IMG/VR virus record: IMGVR_UViG_3300045988_129625
Location: 1-64,000 of that record
Direction: 5' to 3' (one strand)
From: a virus
DNA length: 64,000 nt
The notes beneath the pieces are model-generated. The model made no database searches and had not been told where the DNA came from. It saw only the letters and a program-made list of their open reading frames with translations. Position 1 is the stretch's first letter. Every line of letters begins with the position of its first letter. This document shows, piece by piece, positions 14,237 through 54,260 of this stretch. The position numbers and the translations under genes were made by a program.

Positions 14237-14899
14237 ATGAACAATTTTGTAATAGATACTCCAGATAATTTCTGGCAAATAAGATGGCTTGACAAGTATA
14301 TGGAGGGCCACAAAGGGTTCATAGCTGGTGGATGTTTTAAGAATATCCTTTCCGGAGAAAAGGTAAAAGATATTGATATTTTCTTTGAAAGCGAAAGCGA
14401 TTTTCAGGAAGCTGTTGATTTGTTCAATGATGAAAAACATCAGAAAGAAGGATGGAAATTTAAGTATAGGAATGAGAAGGTATGCGCATTCCAGAAAGAG
14501 GGAGAAAAGGTATGGGTAGAGTTCATAGAGTCAGAGTTCGGAAAGCCAGAAGAGATTCTCAGGAGCTTCGACTTTACTGTGGCAAAAATGGCCTACTATA
14601 AGGAGCCTAAATACGAAGAAAAGGAAGATGATTATTTTCCATTCTCATCTGCAAGTATAGTAGCATACGAGTACAAACTACTCTATCATGAGAAATTCTT
14701 CGAACATCTTCATATGAAGAGGCTGGTTATTGACGAAAATATCCCTTTTCCAGTAAGTACATGGGAAAGGTCATATAAGTATAAGGGGTATGGTTACAAT
14801 ATGTGTAGGGAGACAAAGAAAAAACTTCTACGGGCTCTTAAAGGTGTAAATGTAGAGGAGGAAGATGTATCTTTGTACACTACTGGAGGATGGGATTAA
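14237..14899 (+). CDS. Pol-beta superfamily nucleotidyltransferase with CCA-adding/poly(A)-polymerase-like head motif
   Basis: IAGGCFKNILSGEKVKDIDIFF matches GGxVRDxLLGxxxxDxDxx (G-[GS], 11 residues, D-x-D) of class II tRNA nucleotidyltransferases; the same spacing also fits the OAS/CD-NTase GS..D.D pattern. Confidence 0.55.
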   Translation: MNNFVIDTPDNFWQIRWLDKYMEGHKGFIAGGCFKNILSGEKVKDIDIFFESESDFQEAVDLFNDEKHQKEGWKFKYRNEKVCAFQKEGEKVWVEFIESEFGKPEEILRSFDFTVAKMAYYKEPKYEEKEDDYFPFSSASIVAYEYKLLYHEKFFEHLHMKRLVIDENIPFPVSTWERSYKYKGYGYNMCRETKKKLLRALKGVNVEEEDVSLYTTGGWD

Positions 14900-15357: not shown

Positions 15358-15539
15358 ATGGGCATATCATGAGCACAAGTAAAGAATACAAGGCAGTAAG
15401 GAACTGTATATTAAATGAACTTCACCTTACCAAAGAAGATATAATAAAAAACATAGAACCATTATTGGAAAAACTCGTAAAACAGTGTATGCTTAATACA
15501 TACGGAGGAAACAATTAGATAGAACATTGGATCAGATGT

Positions 15540-16205
15540 ATGGTAGCAGATGAGCTTAAACAAAGGGATTATGGTTTTGTAGAAAGAATAAGCAAGGAAA
15601 TCATAAAAGATCATGTGTTGAATGAGTTGAACATAATTGTAAGTCCCAAAAATGAAAGATGCGTATGTGAAAATAGAGTACCATCAAGAAAAGATGGTTT
15701 GTATCTAATCTACGGAAATGGACACGCTGAGCCGTTTACCGGCGATAACTCCAAAGATTGTGTACAATACATCGGGTTGAAGCACAGATACATGTCATTT
15801 GCAATCTCACTGACGGAGCATGATATCGTACAATTGCTTGACGATGATAGCCGTGAAGAATCCGGAAGTGGGACATATTACGAACGTGAATGTGATGCGC
15901 TGTTTGACATTGACGGACGCGGCAATACGGAACGCCTTGTAGCCAGAAATCCAAAATTGAGAAATCTGCTGGAAGATGGCGAGTATATACCATCTCTTGG
16001 TCAATTAAATTTAATGGCCCATTATATGGACGAACTAAACAAAGCATTCGCTTATGTTTCGGCATCTCCCCTCTCCTCGACGTGGTATTGGTCCAGCACT
16101 GAGAGCAGCCAGGCCGTCGCGTGGTACGTGGTCTTCTCCAGTGGCCTCACGGGCACCGGCAACAAGCACATCGGAGACATGGTTCGGACGGTAATTGATT
16201 TTTAA
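15540..16205 (+). CDS. hypothetical protein (221 aa) with A-depleted GC-rich C-terminal patch
   Basis: Last ~45 codons dominated by NNC codons (TCC AGC GCC GTC TAC TTC GGC ACC AAC CAC ATC GAC), protein ..STWYWSSTESSQAVAWYVVFSSGLTGTG.. Confidence 0.55.
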   Translation: MVADELKQRDYGFVERISKEIIKDHVLNELNIIVSPKNERCVCENRVPSRKDGLYLIYGNGHAEPFTGDNSKDCVQYIGLKHRYMSFAISLTEHDIVQLLDDDSREESGSGTYYERECDALFDIDGRGNTERLVARNPKLRNLLEDGEYIPSLGQLNLMAHYMDELNKAFAYVSASPLSSTWYWSSTESSQAVAWYVVFSSGLTGTGNKHIGDMVRTVIDF

Positions 16206-16216
16206 AAAGGATTACA

Positions 16217-17023
16217 ATGATAACATCAGTAAAAATAAAAGACAATACGAAAACTCCATTTAAATATGTTTCGGACATAGAAACATTTGAAAATGGCAGA
16301 GAATTTATTTTCAAGCCAGGAGTGAATGTAATTATAGGTAAAAACGGTAGTGGAAAATCGACCTTACTTAATATCATATCAATGTATATGTTGTGTGAGA
16401 AGTATATGTGCTCTGAAATGCCGGCTGAGGCGCTGGATTTTCCACCTATATTTGATGATGATGACAAGGTTCTTGATGGGATTGACATATCATCCGATTA
16501 TGCAGGGAAAGTATTCCGTTTATTACCGTCGGCGGAGATGAATCGAGATAGTGTATTGAAAAACATCAGCAATTTAGATTTGTATGTGAATAATATTCGA
16601 AGATCTTATGGAGAGAAAATGGTGTTATCATTGGAATCACTTTTCAATTTAATGTTCGGTCAAAAGGATTATGTGTTTCCAATACGAGATCTTGTAGAAT
16701 ACAAGAAAAAATCAAATACGTTTTGGATTAAAAGAATTGATAATCTGTTGAAGTATTATAAAAGAAACCACATAACATTAACAAAAAACGATTTTGAATA
16801 TACGGTTCTCATGGATGAGCCAGACAGAAATCTTGACATTGATAACATAATACAAATTTACAATGTATTATCATTCCATAAACCACAAACACAAATTATA
16901 GCCATAGTACACAATCCGGCATTGATTTACAAGTTAAGCAAATTAGATTGTGTGAATTTCATAGAGATGACAGAAGGATATCTAAAGGATGTTGTCAATT
17001 TCATAAGTGAAACAAATAAATGA
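16217..17023 (+). CDS. compact ABC-type P-loop ATPase (AAA_15/21-like)
   Basis: Walker A GKNGSGKST, signature-like SYGEK, Walker B TVLMDEPDRNLD, H-loop IVHNP. Confidence 0.7.
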   Translation: MITSVKIKDNTKTPFKYVSDIETFENGREFIFKPGVNVIIGKNGSGKSTLLNIISMYMLCEKYMCSEMPAEALDFPPIFDDDDKVLDGIDISSDYAGKVFRLLPSAEMNRDSVLKNISNLDLYVNNIRRSYGEKMVLSLESLFNLMFGQKDYVFPIRDLVEYKKKSNTFWIKRIDNLLKYYKRNHITLTKNDFEYTVLMDEPDRNLDIDNIIQIYNVLSFHKPQTQIIAIVHNPALIYKLSKLDCVNFIEMTEGYLKDVVNFISETNK

Positions 17024-17029
17024 AAGAGG

Positions 17030-17383
17030 ATGAGAAAAGAACTGAAAATAATAGGATCAAGAGATCGGCACGTATTTACAGCGACATTCATTCGTTTTGG
17101 ATTCAGGGATGGGTATAAAGGACCTGTAAAGACAATACTTTTACAAGACGTGTTACTCGATGGTAAAATAGTAACAGATCATTTGTGGTTTGATTTGACA
17201 AAAGGATTCGAAAGCGCCGATTTATTACCAGGCGATGTGGTTGAGTTTTGTGCAAGGGTTAGTATTTACGAGAAAGGATATAAAGGATATAGGAATGACG
17301 TATTCGATAGGCCGATAGAAAAGGATTATCGATTGTCAAGACCAACAAAGATTAAAAAGATTGGGAAGAAATCAATAGATTGA
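17030..17383 (+). CDS. hypothetical protein (117 aa)
   Basis: Immediately follows the ATPase. Confidence 0.5.
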   Translation: MRKELKIIGSRDRHVFTATFIRFGFRDGYKGPVKTILLQDVLLDGKIVTDHLWFDLTKGFESADLLPGDVVEFCARVSIYEKGYKGYRNDVFDRPIEKDYRLSRPTKIKKIGKKSID

Positions 17384-17483: not shown

Positions 17484-17798
17484 ATGAACTGGAAGAAATT
17501 CAAAGAGGAAAAACCTTCAGAGGGAGAAGAAGTGTTGGCTTATCACCCAAGTTGGATAGATGAAGATTTCAACCCAAGAGGTATAAGAATAGGGTTTTGG
17601 AATGGAGGAGACGATTTTAAATCGGCTCATTGGTGGGATTATCAAGATTGTTATATCACAATCTCTCATTGTGATTGTGATGATAATTCTCTTTTCAGTG
17701 ATAGAATAAAAAACAGCATAGAGCCAGAGTTATGGATATCACTTGATGTTATTACAAATTACTTACCTAACATAAAACAAAATCACTTATCACAATGA
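17484..17798 (+). CDS. hypothetical protein (104 aa)
   Basis: ORF in array. Confidence 0.5.
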   Translation: MNWKKFKEEKPSEGEEVLAYHPSWIDEDFNPRGIRIGFWNGGDDFKSAHWWDYQDCYITISHCDCDDNSLFSDRIKNSIEPELWISLDVITNYLPNIKQNHLSQ

Positions 17799-18178
17799 GC
17801 TATTTTATATTAATGGGAAGAAGAATCCCCAAGCAAGCCATAACAGGCTTCAAATTTCAAAATGAAACAGATAACATTCGTCCTTTCTTGTCAATCAGGA
17901 TAAGGGGAAAGGACGAAATTATACCTTTCAAAGATAAAAAGGAGATACAGTCTGTAAAAGCGCATCTGTGTTCTATCTTCTCCGGATTTGTAAAAATAGG
18001 CGACTGGTATCTCAAGATGTCGGAAGTTAAGGAATATAAGCCGGTGACTGCCGAAGACATGAACCCCTACATCTTATTCAAAACATCTAAGTTCGGAAAC
18101 ATAAAAGTTCGTTTCCCGAAAGATGAAGATATGGATGCCGAATTATTGGTGTTAGATCAACTTTTTGATGTAGAATGA
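17795..18178 (+). CDS. hypothetical protein (127 aa)
   Basis: ATGA overlap. Confidence 0.5.
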   Translation: MSYFILMGRRIPKQAITGFKFQNETDNIRPFLSIRIRGKDEIIPFKDKKEIQSVKAHLCSIFSGFVKIGDWYLKMSEVKEYKPVTAEDMNPYILFKTSKFGNIKVRFPKDEDMDAELLVLDQLFDVE

Positions 18179-18202
18179 ATTATTAATCATCTTTTAAAAA
18201 TC

Positions 18203-18454
18203 ATGACCTGGAAAGAATTAAAAGACAAAATATCCCTTATGACAGAAGAAGAGCAACAGCAAGAAGTTGCAGTTTGGGGAGAAAATATGAATCTAATGAA
18301 AGATTGTTCCTTGGAGAAAACAGACGAGGATTTGTACTATAATACTGAATGGGATTATACTTGTGAAGAGAGTGAATTGGAACCGGAAGACAAGAATGAC
18401 CCTGATGTACATAAGGTATATGAAGCAGGAATGCATTATATTTATTCAAATTGA
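18203..18454 (+). CDS. hypothetical acidic protein (83 aa)
   Basis: ORF in array. Confidence 0.45.
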   Translation: MTWKELKDKISLMTEEEQQQEVAVWGENMNLMKDCSLEKTDEDLYYNTEWDYTCEESELEPEDKNDPDVHKVYEAGMHYIYSN

Positions 18455-18472
18455 TTTAAAAAAGATCTGATT

Positions 18473-18766
18473 ATGGCAGCATTAACAACACTAAATATAA
18501 CGGAAAAGAACGCTAATAACAGTTTGTCTGTAACTGTTAAAGTGAATGTCACCAAAGAAGGAGTGTTTACCACTACCTTGTCAAAAGAAGATGTGGACAA
18601 GATTCATTCTTATGGGATCAAATTACCTACAAACAGATTAGGCAACGAAGGATATTTCAATAGTATAGCACTTTCTGATTTGGAAAGTCAAATCAGGGAA
18701 GTTCTGAAGAGATGTTTGAGTTATAAAATAGTAGAAGAAGTGCCTGTTATAATGCATTTAAAATAG
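18473..18766 (+). CDS. hypothetical protein (97 aa)
   Basis: ORF in array. Confidence 0.45.
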   Translation: MAALTTLNITEKNANNSLSVTVKVNVTKEGVFTTTLSKEDVDKIHSYGIKLPTNRLGNEGYFNSIALSDLESQIREVLKRCLSYKIVEEVPVIMHLK

Positions 18767-19170: not shown

Positions 19171-19572
19171 TTAAGCCAAATTAAATCATTTTGAATCTTT
19201 TTTATTATCAAAAGACATATCTTTGCCCAAAAAAAACAAACATAATGGAAGAAAAAGAGATAAAAGAAGCAATAATCGAGAATAATGCATAACCCATACA
19301 AATCATAAACAATTTGTATTGTATTATGCATAATAGCCAAAAGCTATTCCGATTATTAGCCTAAGTGTTGAAACAAACACTACGTTATTTAAGAATAGAT
19401 AGTTACCTACGGATGTTTGCCCAAGTTCGTAGCTCTAAGGTAAGTGATTAAACAGTTCTGGTATTCAGGAACAGTGTTGCTTACAAAAAAAACCTTAAAT
19501 AACATTGGCGATGGGTACTAACAGAGTTTCACTCTGACTTATGTTGAATAAACATTAAAAACGTTTGTAGAT
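19171..19572 (+). ncRNA. candidate IscB omega RNA / IS200-605 left-end region
   Basis: 400-bp non-coding stretch immediately 5' of iscB; nested hairpin ATGCATAA-ATACAAAT-[cataaaca]-ATTTGTAT-TTATGCAT (19285-19331); TTACCT..AGGTAA/CTACG..CGTAG structure near 19390-19440; CAGAGT-ttc-ACTCTG and ATGTT..AACAT stems just before the ATG. Confidence 0.5.
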
Positions 19573-20799
19573 ATGGTGTACGTACAAGACATAAATGGTA
19601 AACCTATGATGCCTACAACAAGGCATGGTAAGGTTAGGAGACTGCTTAAAGACAAAAAGGCAATCGTTGTAAACCTATGTCCGTTTACCATCAAATTAAT
19701 GTACGTAACATCTGATTACAAACAAGAAATTGTGTTAGGCGTTGATGCTGGTACTAAACATGTTGGTCTATCGGCTACAACGAAAAGCAAAGAACTTTAC
19801 AGCAGTGAAGTTATTCTTAGAAATGATATCGTAGATCTTTTGTCTACCAGAAGGGAGCTACGAAGATCAAGACGAAATAGATTGAGATATAGAAAACCTC
19901 GTTTTGATAATAGAATAAAAAGTAGGCGTCCGGGATGAGTAGCACCTTCGGTGAAATACAAAGTAGACGCCCATATTCGTGTTATTGACAATGTATGTTC
20001 TATATTACCAATATCTCGTATTGTTATCGAAGTAGCTCAATTTGATACTCAAAAGATTAACAATCCTAATATATCAGGTAAAGAATATCAGGAGGGTGAT
20101 CAACTTGGATTTTGGAACGTTAGGGAATATGTTTTAGCAAGAGATGGACATAAATGCCAGCATTGTAAGGGAAAGTCAAAAGACCCAGTATTGAATGTTC
20201 ATCATATTGAATCACGAAAGACAGGTGGAGATTCCCCATCTAATCTTATTACCTTATGTGAAACTTGTCATAAAGAATACCATAAAGGTAATATAGATTT
20301 AAAGATCAAACGGGGATCGTCGCTTCGCGACGCAGCCGTAATGGGAATAATGAAATGGAGATTGTATGAAGAACTAAGGTCTAAATACAACAGAGTTTCT
20401 ATGACTTTCGGTTATGTTACAAAATACAATAGGATTAAACATGGTATTGAAAAATCTCATGTTTTCGATGCATTTGTTATTTCTAAAAACTTTGATGCTA
20501 TAAGGTTAGGATATTATTATAAAGTAAGATTAGTAAGAAGACATAATCGTCAGATCCATAAACAAAAGATTCCAAAAGGAGGGATAAAAAGACCAAATCA
20601 ATCTCCTTTTGAAGTTTTTGGTTTCCGATTGTTTGATAGGGTTATGTTTGAAAACAGTTATTATTTTATATTCGCAAGGCGTAAAACCGGTAGTTTTAAT
20701 ATTCGAGATATTGATGGTAAAAACCAAAGAGATATTACATACAAGAAATTGAAATTATCAAGGTGTAAACGCTTTATGGTACAAAAGGAAATGGATTGA
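19573..20799 (+). CDS. iscB: IscB RNA-guided nuclease (PLMP-RuvC-I-bridge helix-RuvC-II-HNH-RuvC-III) interrupted by one in-frame TGA at 19936-19938
   Basis: PLMP-like N-term (KPMMPTTRHGKVRRLLK), RuvC-I LGVDAGTKHVGLS, Arg-rich bridge helix RRELRRSRRNRLRYRKPRFDNR, RuvC-II IVIEVAQFD, HNH CQHCKGK..NVHHIESRK..LCETCH, RuvC-III SHVFDAF; ORFs 19573-19938 and 19951-20799 are in the same frame, separated only by TGA + 12 nt. Confidence 0.85.
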
Positions 20800-20822
20800 T
20801 TAATTTGAATAAAAATATAGAC

Positions 20823-21293
20823 ATGAATCGTTGGTTTGAAATTACGGTAAAAGCCGAGATTGATAATATCGAGAACGGCAAAAAAAAGAAAGTAACTGAA
20901 AAGTATTTAGTGGATGCCTTGTCTTACACAGAGGCAGAATCAAGATCGTTGGAGATCTTCAAGGATTTGTACAATTCTTTCGAGGTTGTAAAAATTAATC
21001 CTATTAAAGTGTCGGAAATCTTCTTCAACGGAGAAGCTGAGTACTGGTATAAGTGTAAGGTGAATTACATTACACTGGATGAAAAGAAAGGTAAAGAAAA
21101 GAAAACTCCATGCTATATGTATATCCAGGCCGGCAATCCTAAGGATGCCGAAGCTGTGTTGACTAAAGGTATGCAGGGTACGTTAGGAGACTGGAATTGC
21201 GAGTCTATTGTGGAAACGAAAATCATTGAAGTGTTTAAATACGATCTTCAGAAGGGAGCTGAAAAATTAGGCGAGAAGAAGAGTGAAGAGTAA
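20823..21293 (+). CDS. hypothetical protein (start trimmed from TTG 20796 to ATG 20823)
   Basis: First ATG in frame; begins 23 nt after iscB stop. Confidence 0.5.
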   Translation: MNRWFEITVKAEIDNIENGKKKKVTEKYLVDALSYTEAESRSLEIFKDLYNSFEVVKINPIKVSEIFFNGEAEYWYKCKVNYITLDEKKGKEKKTPCYMYIQAGNPKDAEAVLTKGMQGTLGDWNCESIVETKIIEVFKYDLQKGAEKLGEKKSEE

Positions 21294-49167: not shown

Positions 49168-49443
49168 TCAATAATTTAAAATACCGTTTTTACCAATATG
49201 CTTCTTTTCTTCTTCAGTAGGCCATTCTTTCTTGAACTTACCGTGCCACGTTCCAGGAACTACCACCACTTCGCCTCCCTTGCTATATTCAATAGCGGCA
49301 CATTCAGAACAAAGAGGCTTGCCTTCATATCCCTTTAGCGACTTATCGTAAATACGATTCTTACAAGGTCTTATAAGAGCCCAGTAATATGATGTGGCTG
49401 TATTATCTATACAGCCACATTTTGAACATACAAACAAACTCAT
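49168..49443 (-). CDS. hypothetical Zn-ribbon protein (91 aa)
   Basis: CSKCGC..CSECAA. Confidence 0.5.
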   Translation of the reverse strand: MSLFVCSKCGCIDNTATSYYWALIRPCKNRIYDKSLKGYEGKPLCSECAAIEYSKGGEVVVVPGTWHGKFKKEWPTEEEKKHIGKNGILNY

Positions 49444-50303
49444 CCCGCAATCTCCCAGTCATTAGACATAATATCATGTTCGGTTGGATTCCAATTTGAT
49501 GCTACTTTTTGACCTGTATCTACCATCAATATATTTACGTCAAACATACAGATATACTTTTTACCCCAATCGATTCTTTTTATCTTACGACCTAATTTAA
49601 GCCGTTCTAAAGCCTGTTCGAATGTCATGCCACGACGAGGCAGTTTGAGATACTTTTTAAGTCTGTCGGCAGCTTCATTTGGTGTATGGCCATCGTATTC
49701 GAAAGCGGTTTCTCTTTCAGGAACATCAAACAAATCCCAGTATTTGCTTTCATAGTGATTAGATACCTGACCGGTAGGTAGGATCGCCATCACAATAAAC
49801 CAATCATCAGAACCGAAGCATTTTTCTCCGTCGCTGTGTCTCCTTGATTTGCAAACTTCAACCTGTCCGCTTCTGGCTAATAGATTAAAGAAGGCAGCGT
49901 TATACAACATGCGATACCGATACAATTCATTGAAAGTATGGTATCCATCAGAAACTTCTCCCACGTCTACAGGCTTCTTGTTTTGAATACTACCCAAAAT
50001 CTTCTCTACATAGAGCTGTATTTTATACAGACCCATTTCGGTGTGGCCGTATTTGTTCAAGATATTATTGACATCGTATTGTATATTAAAATCTTTTTCA
50101 AATTCTACTTCAGGATGATTAGGATAGAAGTAGTCCACTGATGCTTCTAACACTGACTTTACGTGTTCTATTATCCTCGCAACATCATCATGTTTAAAAA
50201 AATGCTTAAAACTTTCAATGAATTTAATATCTTCGTTGATTGCTGATTCGAACTCTTCTTTTGTCATCACTCTAATTACATCTTTAAAATCTTTTAATTC
50301 CAT
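49440..50303 (-). CDS. hypothetical protein (287 aa)
   Basis: ORF. Confidence 0.55.
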   Translation of the reverse strand: MELKDFKDVIRVMTKEEFESAINEDIKFIESFKHFFKHDDVARIIEHVKSVLEASVDYFYPNHPEVEFEKDFNIQYDVNNILNKYGHTEMGLYKIQLYVEKILGSIQNKKPVDVGEVSDGYHTFNELYRYRMLYNAAFFNLLARSGQVEVCKSRRHSDGEKCFGSDDWFIVMAILPTGQVSNHYESKYWDLFDVPERETAFEYDGHTPNEAADRLKKYLKLPRRGMTFEQALERLKLGRKIKRIDWGKKYICMFDVNILMVDTGQKVASNWNPTEHDIMSNDWEIAG

Positions 50304-52689: not shown

Positions 52690-54260
52690 ATCCCACTATG
52701 ACAAACCCTAATGAGCCAAAAATATCTTTCAACATTAAACAACCAGAGGTGGGATCTCGTTGTTCATTGTTTCTGAAACAAAGATAGGAACAGAATCTTA
52801 AATAGCAAATATTTTAATACTTTTTAAAACGATCAGGGCCCGCATCACTGCGAACCCTGATCTACATTAATCTAAACTAATACCATGAAAAACTTAAATC
52901 TAAAAACTAAAGAACACACAAATGTAGGTGATTATATATCACCTTACGCCAGAAGCGTAAAGTGATACACATTTATACGGAAATCCGTACTGGGTTCCAC
53001 CAAAACCCTCTACCTTCTGGTAACATCGTTACATCAAAGGATTCTTTTTCTGATTTTCTAATGATGTTAAAAGCACCATTAATGTCAGCATTGATGATCT
53101 TACCAAACGAGGTTTTAAACAATCCCCGTTTGGTTCTTCTTCCTTTGTAAGATTCATGTTTGCAAATCCGTTCATTATCCAAAAAGCTACATTTTGAAGT
53201 ATAAGATTCTTCAACAATCTTAACATTAATACCTTCTAATGTTGCTTTATAAGATATCATTGAGATAAACATATTAAAAGGAATAGATACAAAGTTCTGA
53301 TTATTTCGTTTTCCAATATTGATCTCTTGTTTCCAGCATTTGTTATGACCGATTATGATCGTGTTAATACCATTGGAAACTACGTGATTAACCAATATCC
53401 TACTTGCCTTATGAAGATAATCTTTGATCTTATTATTCCTTTTGTTAGTTAATAACCTGATTTGTTTTGAAGTATGTTTATTATCTTTTAATTTAGATTT
53501 TAAATATGAAAGTCTTTTGTTATAATACTGGTTGATAGACTTCAGTGGTCTACCATTGATGATAAAACAAGAACCGTTATTAGAAACACAAGATGCTAAA
53601 TTATCTAATCCTATGTCGATACCAAGATAAGATCCATTATATGACATAAGATCCTTTTCCTTCTTATTGTAAACTATTTCAAGAATAATGTACCCATTCT
53701 TAGGAATGAATCTAAGTTGTTGGATATTTTGTTTATTGGTTCTTGTTGTAAAGGAAAACTGTTTTGGTAACTTAACAATGCCTTGTTTTATCCATTTTTG
53801 AGAAAAAGCATTTGTTGCAAAAACAGCAGGAAACAAACCATCCTTGTTGAGATACTTTGGCATTCTTACTTCCTCATAATACTCACCTCTATTCTTTTTA
53901 TTTAAAAGATTGAAGAACGATTTAAAGTTTCTATCAACCATCATCAACACTTGTTGAGCAACCGGTACTGGTAAAGCACGATAGTCGACATCGTTTTCTG
54001 TTTTTAGTTTCTTTTCAAGAGAATAGTAGTTTAGGTATTTGTATTTTACAGTATTATCATCTTTATATTGAAAATAATGTTGCCTAACAACATACAATCC
54101 TTTGTTGTATAAGTTTTTACACTTATGCAACAGGTCATAAAGTTCATTGTAATAGACAGAACTTGGCTTGATCGTATGTTGTTCAACTAATCTCATGGCA
54201 CAAATGTATGAAAATGTATGCTTTTCACAAAGAATCTGTATCCTATTCTTTTGTGTGATT
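52690..54260 (-). mobile_element. IS605-family TnpB-only element or its relic; ends approximate
   Basis: About 300 bp non-coding 3' of tnpB with three perfect hairpins (GATCAGGG..CCCTGATC, GGTGAT-tatata-ATCACC, CTTACGC-cagaa-GCGTAAG) and ~450 bp non-coding on the 5' side. Confidence 0.35.
52973..54196 (-). CDS. tnpB: divergent TnpB-like protein lacking the canonical RuvC-II Glu and the CxxC zinc finger
   Basis: RuvC-I YLGIDIGLDNLA; the YIFIEDLNIEGMK position of the other TnpB reads TIIIGHNKCWKQE; YTSKCSFLDNERICKHE replaces CxxC..CxxC; RuvC-III INADINGAFNIIRK retained. Confidence 0.8.
   Translation of the reverse strand: MRLVEQHTIKPSSVYYNELYDLLHKCKNLYNKGLYVVRQHYFQYKDDNTVKYKYLNYYSLEKKLKTENDVDYRALPVPVAQQVLMMVDRNFKSFFNLLNKKNRGEYYEEVRMPKYLNKDGLFPAVFATNAFSQKWIKQGIVKLPKQFSFTTRTNKQNIQQLRFIPKNGYIILEIVYNKKEKDLMSYNGSYLGIDIGLDNLASCVSNNGSCFIINGRPLKSINQYYNKRLSYLKSKLKDNKHTSKQIRLLTNKRNNKIKDYLHKASRILVNHVVSNGINTIIIGHNKCWKQEINIGKRNNQNFVSIPFNMFISMISYKATLEGINVKIVEESYTSKCSFLDNERICKHESYKGRRTKRGLFKTSFGKIINADINGAFNIIRKSEKESFDVTMLPEGRGFWWNPVRISV

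Follow-up and report, generated by a model that had tools for sequence, protein, structure and literature searches.

When two neighbouring open reading frames (ORFs) of a phage together spell out one nuclease, and are parted only by a TGA that lies where a tryptophan is expected, is the gene broken or is the TGA read as an amino acid? This question is raised by a locus in the IMG/VR virus record IMGVR_UViG_3300045988_129625, of which positions 1 to 64,000 were analysed (this stretch is termed the window, and coordinates refer to it unless stated otherwise). Two plus-strand ORFs, 19573–19938 (121 aa) and 19951–20799 (282 aa), share a common frame, with starts that are 378 nt apart in the ORF list. 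A preliminary description of the DNA had offered three accounts of the pair: that TGA is decoded as Trp, that the gene was acquired from a TGA-recoded genome, or that a very recent TGG to TGA mutation has created a pseudogene. We consider it highly probable (about 0.9) that this is a standard-code phage in which a G>A change at 19938 turned Trp-122 (TGG) into TGA, giving a loss-of-function allele of iscB.

An interrupted iscB and its mobile element

Read continuously, positions 19573–20799 form a single frame of 409 codons, which would encode a 408-aa IscB if the stop were bridged. The TGA at 19936–19938 (context DNRIKSRRPG-stop-VAPSVKY) is the only internal stop, as had been claimed, and the frame ends with another TGA at 20797–20799. 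The bridged product matches the Pfam family RRXRR (PF14239) over the full profile (positions 1–174 of 174; E = 3.5e-60) and HNH (PF01844) across residues 195–238 (E = 4.3e-9), and it aligns to solved IscB structures, OgeuIscB (7utn/7xht) and others, with E of about 1e-43. Codons 1–121 (19573–19935, plus strand) encode the PLMP-like N-terminus (GKPMMPT), RuvC-I with D58 and the arginine-rich bridge helix, as placed by Pfam RRXRR and the OgeuIscB alignment; codons 123–408 (19939–20799, plus strand) hold RuvC-II (E153), HNH (H210/H211, N224 and H233), RuvC-III (H296 and D299) and the C-terminal domain, as placed by Pfam, the OgeuIscB alignment and conservation. The HNH domain, catalytic residues included, is situated between RuvC-II and RuvC-III, as is characteristic of IscB, and D58, within LGVDAGT, pairs with LGIDPGR of OgeuIscB. 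Conservation was assessed in an alignment of 107 diverse sequences, comprising the uninterrupted protein P0002 and 106 relatives that each represent a 50%-identity cluster: D58, E153, H210/H211, N224, H233, H296 and D299 are all present in the window copy and are 89–100% conserved (92–100% when D58, E153, H210/H211, H296 and D299 are considered). Pfam, the structural alignment and this conservation agree with the earlier statement that the two ORFs make up a complete IscB with its catalytic residues.

In the alignment to OgeuIscB, ‘RFDNRIKSRRPG[stop]VAPSVKY’ stands opposite ‘RFNNR--KRPVGWLTPTANH’, and the stop column is the W of ‘RP(V/K)GWLTPT’; codon 122 is therefore the Trp position of the post-bridge-helix motif GW[LV]xP[ST]. 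The preliminary description had placed the stop on an invariant Trp, which was right as to the motif column but not as to invariance: the column holds W in 71 of the 107 sequences (66%), R in 17 and other residues or gaps in 19. The PLMP-like N-terminus, RuvC-I, bridge helix, RuvC-II, HNH, RuvC-III and C-terminal domain follow one another in the same order as in OgeuIscB (PDB 7utn, 7xht, 8csz), and the locus resembles OgeuIscB-type OMEGA systems in its catalytic residues, in the HEARO/omega RNA directly upstream on the same strand and in the absence of TnpA. It differs from OgeuIscB in its length (408 aa versus 496 aa), with about 35–40% similarity in aligned blocks, in being carried by a crAss-like phage and in the interruption of the ORF at codon 122. 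Judged from its sequence, the window copy is an IscB by descent and architecture in the form of a nonsense allele: the expected features are present with the exception of an unbroken ORF, in which the TGA at 19936–19938 intervenes.

The closest complete phage, at about 94% identity to the window, is the 151-kb human-gut csAssE-Sib (OR575929.1), for which nothing was found in the literature; parts of a 153,986-nt metagenomic scaffold (ERZ28659079, XIEH16-1 scaffold_85) match the window with 100% identity. The phage belongs to the epsilon group of crAss-like phages, its genome size (about 154 kb) and gene content being in line with the Epsilon group described by Yutin et al. 2021 (PMC7886860); a search for IscB and crAss-like phages together in the literature found only a general review. 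Two further genes of the window, at 32808–33983 and 52973–54196 (both minus strand), encode apparently intact TnpB proteins of 391 aa and 407 aa with the Pfam domains OrfB_IS605 and Cas12f1-like TNB. The first of these lies antisense inside the plus-strand replication block, and the GC skew there falls to about 0. A 220-aa protein encoded at 14237–14899 (plus strand), annotated as polyA polymerase in csAssE-Sib, has a precomputed Pfam match to Gad2 (PF26128) on an identical protein, and a 287-aa protein encoded at 49440–50303 (minus strand) has precomputed matches to Tad2-like (PF11195) and WDGH on an identical protein; both are possible candidates for anti-defence genes.

The iscB gene forms part of an IS200/IS605-type IscB–omega RNA element without TnpA, with approximate ends at 19272 and 20800 (plus strand). 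These ends were placed by its absence from csAssE-Sib and by the breaks in homology of copies at other genomic sites, which fall at about 19271–19276 or 19348 on the left and about 20754–20826 on the right. The omega RNA scaffold (19330–19522, plus strand; Rfam RF02033 HEARO) lies directly upstream of iscB on the same strand, another characteristic of IscB loci, and scores 113.1 bits against a gathering score of 83 over model positions 1–211 of 211; it is followed by a small hairpin and a T-rich tail (19522–19545, plus strand), a putative terminator-like feature from a consensus scan only. This RNA differs from that of the closely related TGG strain L002 in a single feature, an A-run of unequal length (A8 versus A7), and it is apparently undamaged in the stop-bearing strain. 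There is no counterpart of window 19273–20783 in csAssE-Sib, which instead has an 86-aa gene just upstream of a DUF4494 gene, and relative to that phage the element is flanked by a truncated small gene on one side and by the DUF4494 gene on the other. The 86-aa gene has been mostly replaced, with only its first ~10 codons (MEEKEIKEA...) left at window 19245–19292 (plus strand) against L001 9292–9552; this remnant points to an insertion within that gene, or to an insertion accompanied by deletion. Related elements are found in many phage contigs of 80–155 kb, in 2–3 copies in some, and this distribution marks the element as a mobile IscB–omega RNA unit without TnpA. The compact form (406–408 aa) is widespread in crAss-like contigs (IMG/VR loci L010–L088, for example 3300045988_121141 with L021, L060 and L073). 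Its alleles are strongly mosaic (recombinant) and end in variable C-terminal tails (...MVQKEMD, ...PIILK, ...MIQMELNK), a pattern suggesting that transposition and gene conversion continue among phages.

The phage uses the standard genetic code

Stop-codon reassignment has been documented in crAss-like phages, mostly in late genes, and phages a short phylogenetic distance apart can differ in it (PMC7886860). Like the recoded crAss-like phages (TGA to Trp or TAG to Gln in late genes; PMC7886860; bioRxiv 10.1101/2021.08.26.457843), the window phage has an in-frame TGA where a Trp is expected, and it belongs to the same broad assemblage. The recoded phages, however, have many in-frame stops in late genes, avoid ending genes with the reassigned codon and often encode suppressor tRNAs; the window phage shows none of this. 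Indeed, 88 ORF segments of 80 codons or more lie on the coding strand of the window, and about 30 of them end in TGA, including iscB itself and the gene of a 2110-aa virion protein, and seven gene pairs overlap as ATGA start/stop, where TGA must act as a stop. It had been remarked that no other long ORF in the window contains TGA, which is true but holds by the definition of an ORF; the proper test is given by homologous Trp positions. When the ORFs of csAssE-Sib were aligned to the window (coding strand only, 18,236 codons), 228 of 238 Trp positions were TGG and none was TGA, and this comparison yielded just one genuine in-frame stop, the TAG at 15516 within a DUF3988-like gene. No breaks interrupt the late and structural genes of the window or of the 10 kb that follow it on the same scaffold (L101), and in csAssE-Sib the genes for TerL, portal and MCP and the 6.8-kb muzzle gene are intact.

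The tRNA complement gives the same picture. ARAGORN detected no tRNA genes in the window and only Cys-GCA, Arg-CCT, Gln-TTG, Met-CAT, Tyr-GTA and Lys-TTT in csAssE-Sib, and six related genomes of 145–157 kb have the same Met/Gln/Arg/Cys tRNA cluster or part of it, one of them with Arg and Cys only. A search for a suppressor tRNA with anticodon UCA, as the preliminary description had proposed, found none in the window, the 10 kb past its end, the complete csAssE-Sib genome or the tRNA clusters of the six relatives, a scope that stops short of the remaining ~77 kb of this strain's contig (including its tRNA clusters) and of the host. Thus, none of the three features of recoded phages that were tested (in-frame TGAs at Trp elsewhere, terminators depleted of TGA and a tRNA-UCA) was found. 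The phage uses the standard genetic code, and genome-wide or late-gene recoding of TGA is contradicted by terminator usage, by the codons at Trp positions and by the tRNA scans.

Other adjoining ORFs in the window are also parted by TGA in a shared frame, and these were set aside as probable coincidences rather than cases of readthrough. The homologues of 16217–17023 and 17030–17383 in csAssE-Sib are separate genes, as are those of the plus-strand run 17795–18178, 18179–18454 and 18455–18766, with TGA at 18176–18178 and 18452–18454, where one junction is out of frame and the arrangement is probably a coincidence; counted together (16217–17383 and 17795–18766), two of the three plus-strand TGA junctions are out of frame in csAssE-Sib. 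The minus-strand pair 49458–49168 and 49167–48859 was taken as a coincidence too, the comparison with csAssE-Sib having covered plus-strand pairs only.

Origin of the stop at codon 122 and its fate across strains

A protein search returned an uninterrupted 408-aa IscB, P0002, that is 99% identical to the bridged product and belongs to a cluster of 3063 members on contigs of up to 149 kb. Its contig, L002, can be aligned to the window over 21,228 nt with 99.94% identity, the two being separated by 12 substitutions, all of them transitions, and one A-run indel. The element occupies the same genomic site upstream of the DUF4494 gene in both strains, with 99.8% DNA identity across it; the four differences within the element include TGG in L002 versus TGA in the window, and the ORFs differ by three SNPs. 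Codon 122 is TGG in all 79 IMG/VR loci that matched the flanking pattern in a pattern scan and in 81 related loci overall, and P0002/L002 and IMG/VR L010–L088 differ from the window in having TGG at this codon within a continuous ORF of 406–408 aa. Since TGG is present in the near-identical L002 and in all 79 pattern loci, the comparison with related genomes that had been proposed for this site identifies the TGA as derived, by a G>A transition, from a TGG background. The changed base had been given as 19937; set against L002 it is 19938, the third codon position.

The same strain carries a second nonsense SNP, CAG>TAG (Gln to stop) at 15516–15518, in the DUF3988-like gene (15369–16205, plus strand). 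This gene encodes 278 aa and is unbroken in L002 and csAssE-Sib, and the TAG in the window yields ORFs of 49 aa and 221 aa. Nonsense changes account for 2 of the 12 SNPs between the window and L002, and the second of them indicates that this strain carries ordinary deleterious polymorphisms.

A G>A transition is expected to leave just such a trace, a TGA on a conserved Trp codon, since only two codon types, TGG among them, can turn into TGA by a transition; the position of the stop is therefore no argument for code-4 decoding, and the case serves as a caution on that point. In the intact gene 23 transitions create a stop, six of them in the three Trp codons, and TGA is reachable by transition from eight codons only, three TGG and five CGA. 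The prior chance that a transition-derived TGA lies on a Trp is hence 3 in 8, and the coincidence is without weight. The other two Trp codons of the window iscB are TGG. As to a hotspot or selection at codon 122, in a rough binomial comparison at least ~2 of 7 independent nonsense events against 2 of 23 transition routes was not significant, with alleles that were themselves ascertained via codon 122.

Stops at codon 122 are found in several strains, their apparent frequency being biased as they were looked for specifically. The exact 121-aa product was called on seven public contigs, and L007 and L008 are identical to the window; two different assemblies match it exactly over 12–20 kb, and the presence of the same base in different assemblies shows that the TGA allele is real. 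Another strain, L009 (ERR11284060), also has TGA, with flanks that are about 5% diverged and a mosaic patch around the stop. When L009 1–1325 is set against window 19537–20860, the ORF is identical over 837 nt (20006–20842) and nine changes are clustered within 75 bp (19932–20005), which looks like a short gene-conversion tract that kept the TGA. L089 and L091 (ERR14001004 and ERR14000951) have TGA on the commonest haplotype together with a 407-bp deletion in the gene (window coordinates 20219–20625), and constitute a further-decayed TGA lineage. The preliminary description had regarded additional disabling mutations in closely related genomes as telling against its view of the gene, and these two contigs carry them. 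A different stop, TAG, occupies codon 122 in L090, L093 and L094; from the sequences it is an independent TGG>TAG event, and no rescue of it is possible through decoding of TGA as Trp. Codon 122 is therefore TGA on three haplotypes and TAG in three further contigs, and the ORF is flawless apart from the stop in the window strain, L009, L090, L093 and L094.

Lesions elsewhere in the gene are common amongst relatives. Nonsense changes were found at Q5, K41, W182 and Q196, frameshifts in P0123, P0124, P0130, L022, L031, L092 and others, and internal deletions in P0144 and P0146. About 9–12 of 54 fully covered IMG/VR copies are broken, and other lesions disrupt about 15% of related copies; on these counts the decay of iscB appears to be routine in these phages, though most copies stay intact. 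The proposal of a very recent pseudogene mutation has accordingly been borne out as regards the nonsense mutation and only partly as regards its age: 12 SNPs in 21 kb separate the window from a TGG strain, but TGA also occurs in more diverged backgrounds and in other samples.

Readings of the allele and its meaning

A single G>A transition at 19938 in this strain changed codon 122 from TGG to TGA, and under the favoured reading translation would stop after residue 121. The resulting fragment would comprise the PLMP-like region, RuvC-I and the bridge helix and would lack RuvC-II, HNH, RuvC-III and the C-terminal target-recognition domain, which would inactivate the RNA-guided nuclease. Codons 123–408 are predicted to be translated weakly or not at all in this allele; gene callers choose GTG at 19951, 12 nt past the stop, as the start of the downstream ORF. 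The truncated product is presumably non-functional, with RNA-guided cleavage lost, and the allele is probably neutral or nearly neutral for the phage; it would be on its way to a pseudogene, with the omega RNA gene untouched.

UGA is the leakiest of the bacterial stop codons and is misread mainly by tRNA-Trp, as was established in classical work on E. coli and Q-beta. The allele could on this account be hypomorphic or conditional, either through readthrough by tRNA-Trp, which would restore the wild-type residue, or through re-initiation at the GTG at 19951, which would give a two-piece IscB; residual nuclease activity would remain, possibly selected to dampen a costly nuclease. The undamaged downstream ORF and omega RNA, the position of the GTG and the occurrence of codon-122 stops on several haplotypes in several samples are in keeping with such an account. 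The context of the stop, however, is the same as in TGG alleles, so that nothing appears adapted for readthrough; Trp would not be regained from the TAG alleles, a 407-bp stretch is gone from the gene in L089 and L091, relatives bear numerous other inactivating lesions at scattered points of it, and a split product would be without residues 122–126, including the conserved W and P125. We regard residual activity of this kind as improbable. The otherwise flawless ORFs and the stops at codon 122 on several haplotypes could nevertheless reflect longer persistence than a dead gene should have, or residual function; that these stops (TGA/TAG), which mostly come with an intact omega RNA, reflect more than drift, being kept since a switched-off or dampened nuclease is advantageous or since a leaky UGA supplies a low dose of wild-type enzyme, is a speculative proposition to which we give little credence.

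An error of sequencing or assembly, with G as the true base at 19938 (TGG), would dispose of the stop altogether, and the allele is indeed a single-base difference known here from assemblies rather than reads. This is very unlikely: the exact allele is present in ERZ28659079, ERZ24849287 and Logan contigs that are 100% identical to the window over 12–20 kb, and three other runs (ERR11284060, ERR14001004 and ERR14000951) yielded diverged strains that have TGA too. Decoding of TGA as Trp, whether code-4-like or by a suppressor tRNA of the phage or host, would leave the gene intact. It draws on the precedent in crAss-like phages (PMC7886860), on the Trp codon at which the stop sits and on a tRNA scan that for this strain spanned the window and 10 kb beyond rather than the whole contig. 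Against it stand the frequent use of TGA as a genuine terminator, at iscB and in the ATGA overlaps, the count of 0 TGA in 238 homologous Trp positions, the unbroken long late genes and the lack of a suppressor tRNA in the window, csAssE-Sib and six relatives; furthermore, the near-identical L002 has TGG, other strains have TAG at codon 122 and the TGA lineage of L089 and L091 has decayed further, so that we find this reading barely credible. Least probable of all, and to our minds next to impossible, is a recent import of the gene from a TGA-recoded genome together with its TGA-Trp codon. The element is mobile, with near-identical copies in phages of ~80–155 kb and at several sites within one genome, yet codon 122 is TGG in all 81 other sampled loci of the family, the remaining two Trp codons of this gene are TGG and three SNPs in the ORF separate the allele from a TGG counterpart at the same site in the genome; the import reading fails because the source family uses TGG.

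The nonsense allele thus favoured resembles decaying IscB/TnpB pseudogenes, in which a selfish-element gene bears a single inactivating lesion and sister copies have frameshifts, nonsense changes and deletions. Nothing substantive sets the window copy apart from them, as it stands at an early stage with one lesion, and a nonsense-mutated transposon nuclease is in itself already known and ordinary. For annotation, the pair of ORFs is best treated as a single iscB pseudogene (or nonsense allele) rather than as two genes, and it should not be taken as evidence for an alternative code. From the sequences compared here, the window allele is a circulating loss-of-function allele of a selfish-element nuclease that is present in several strains. 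Of mild practical interest is the compact 406–408-aa IscB with its 193-nt omega RNA, which abounds in epsilon crAss-like gut phages, in multiple copies and for the most part unbroken.
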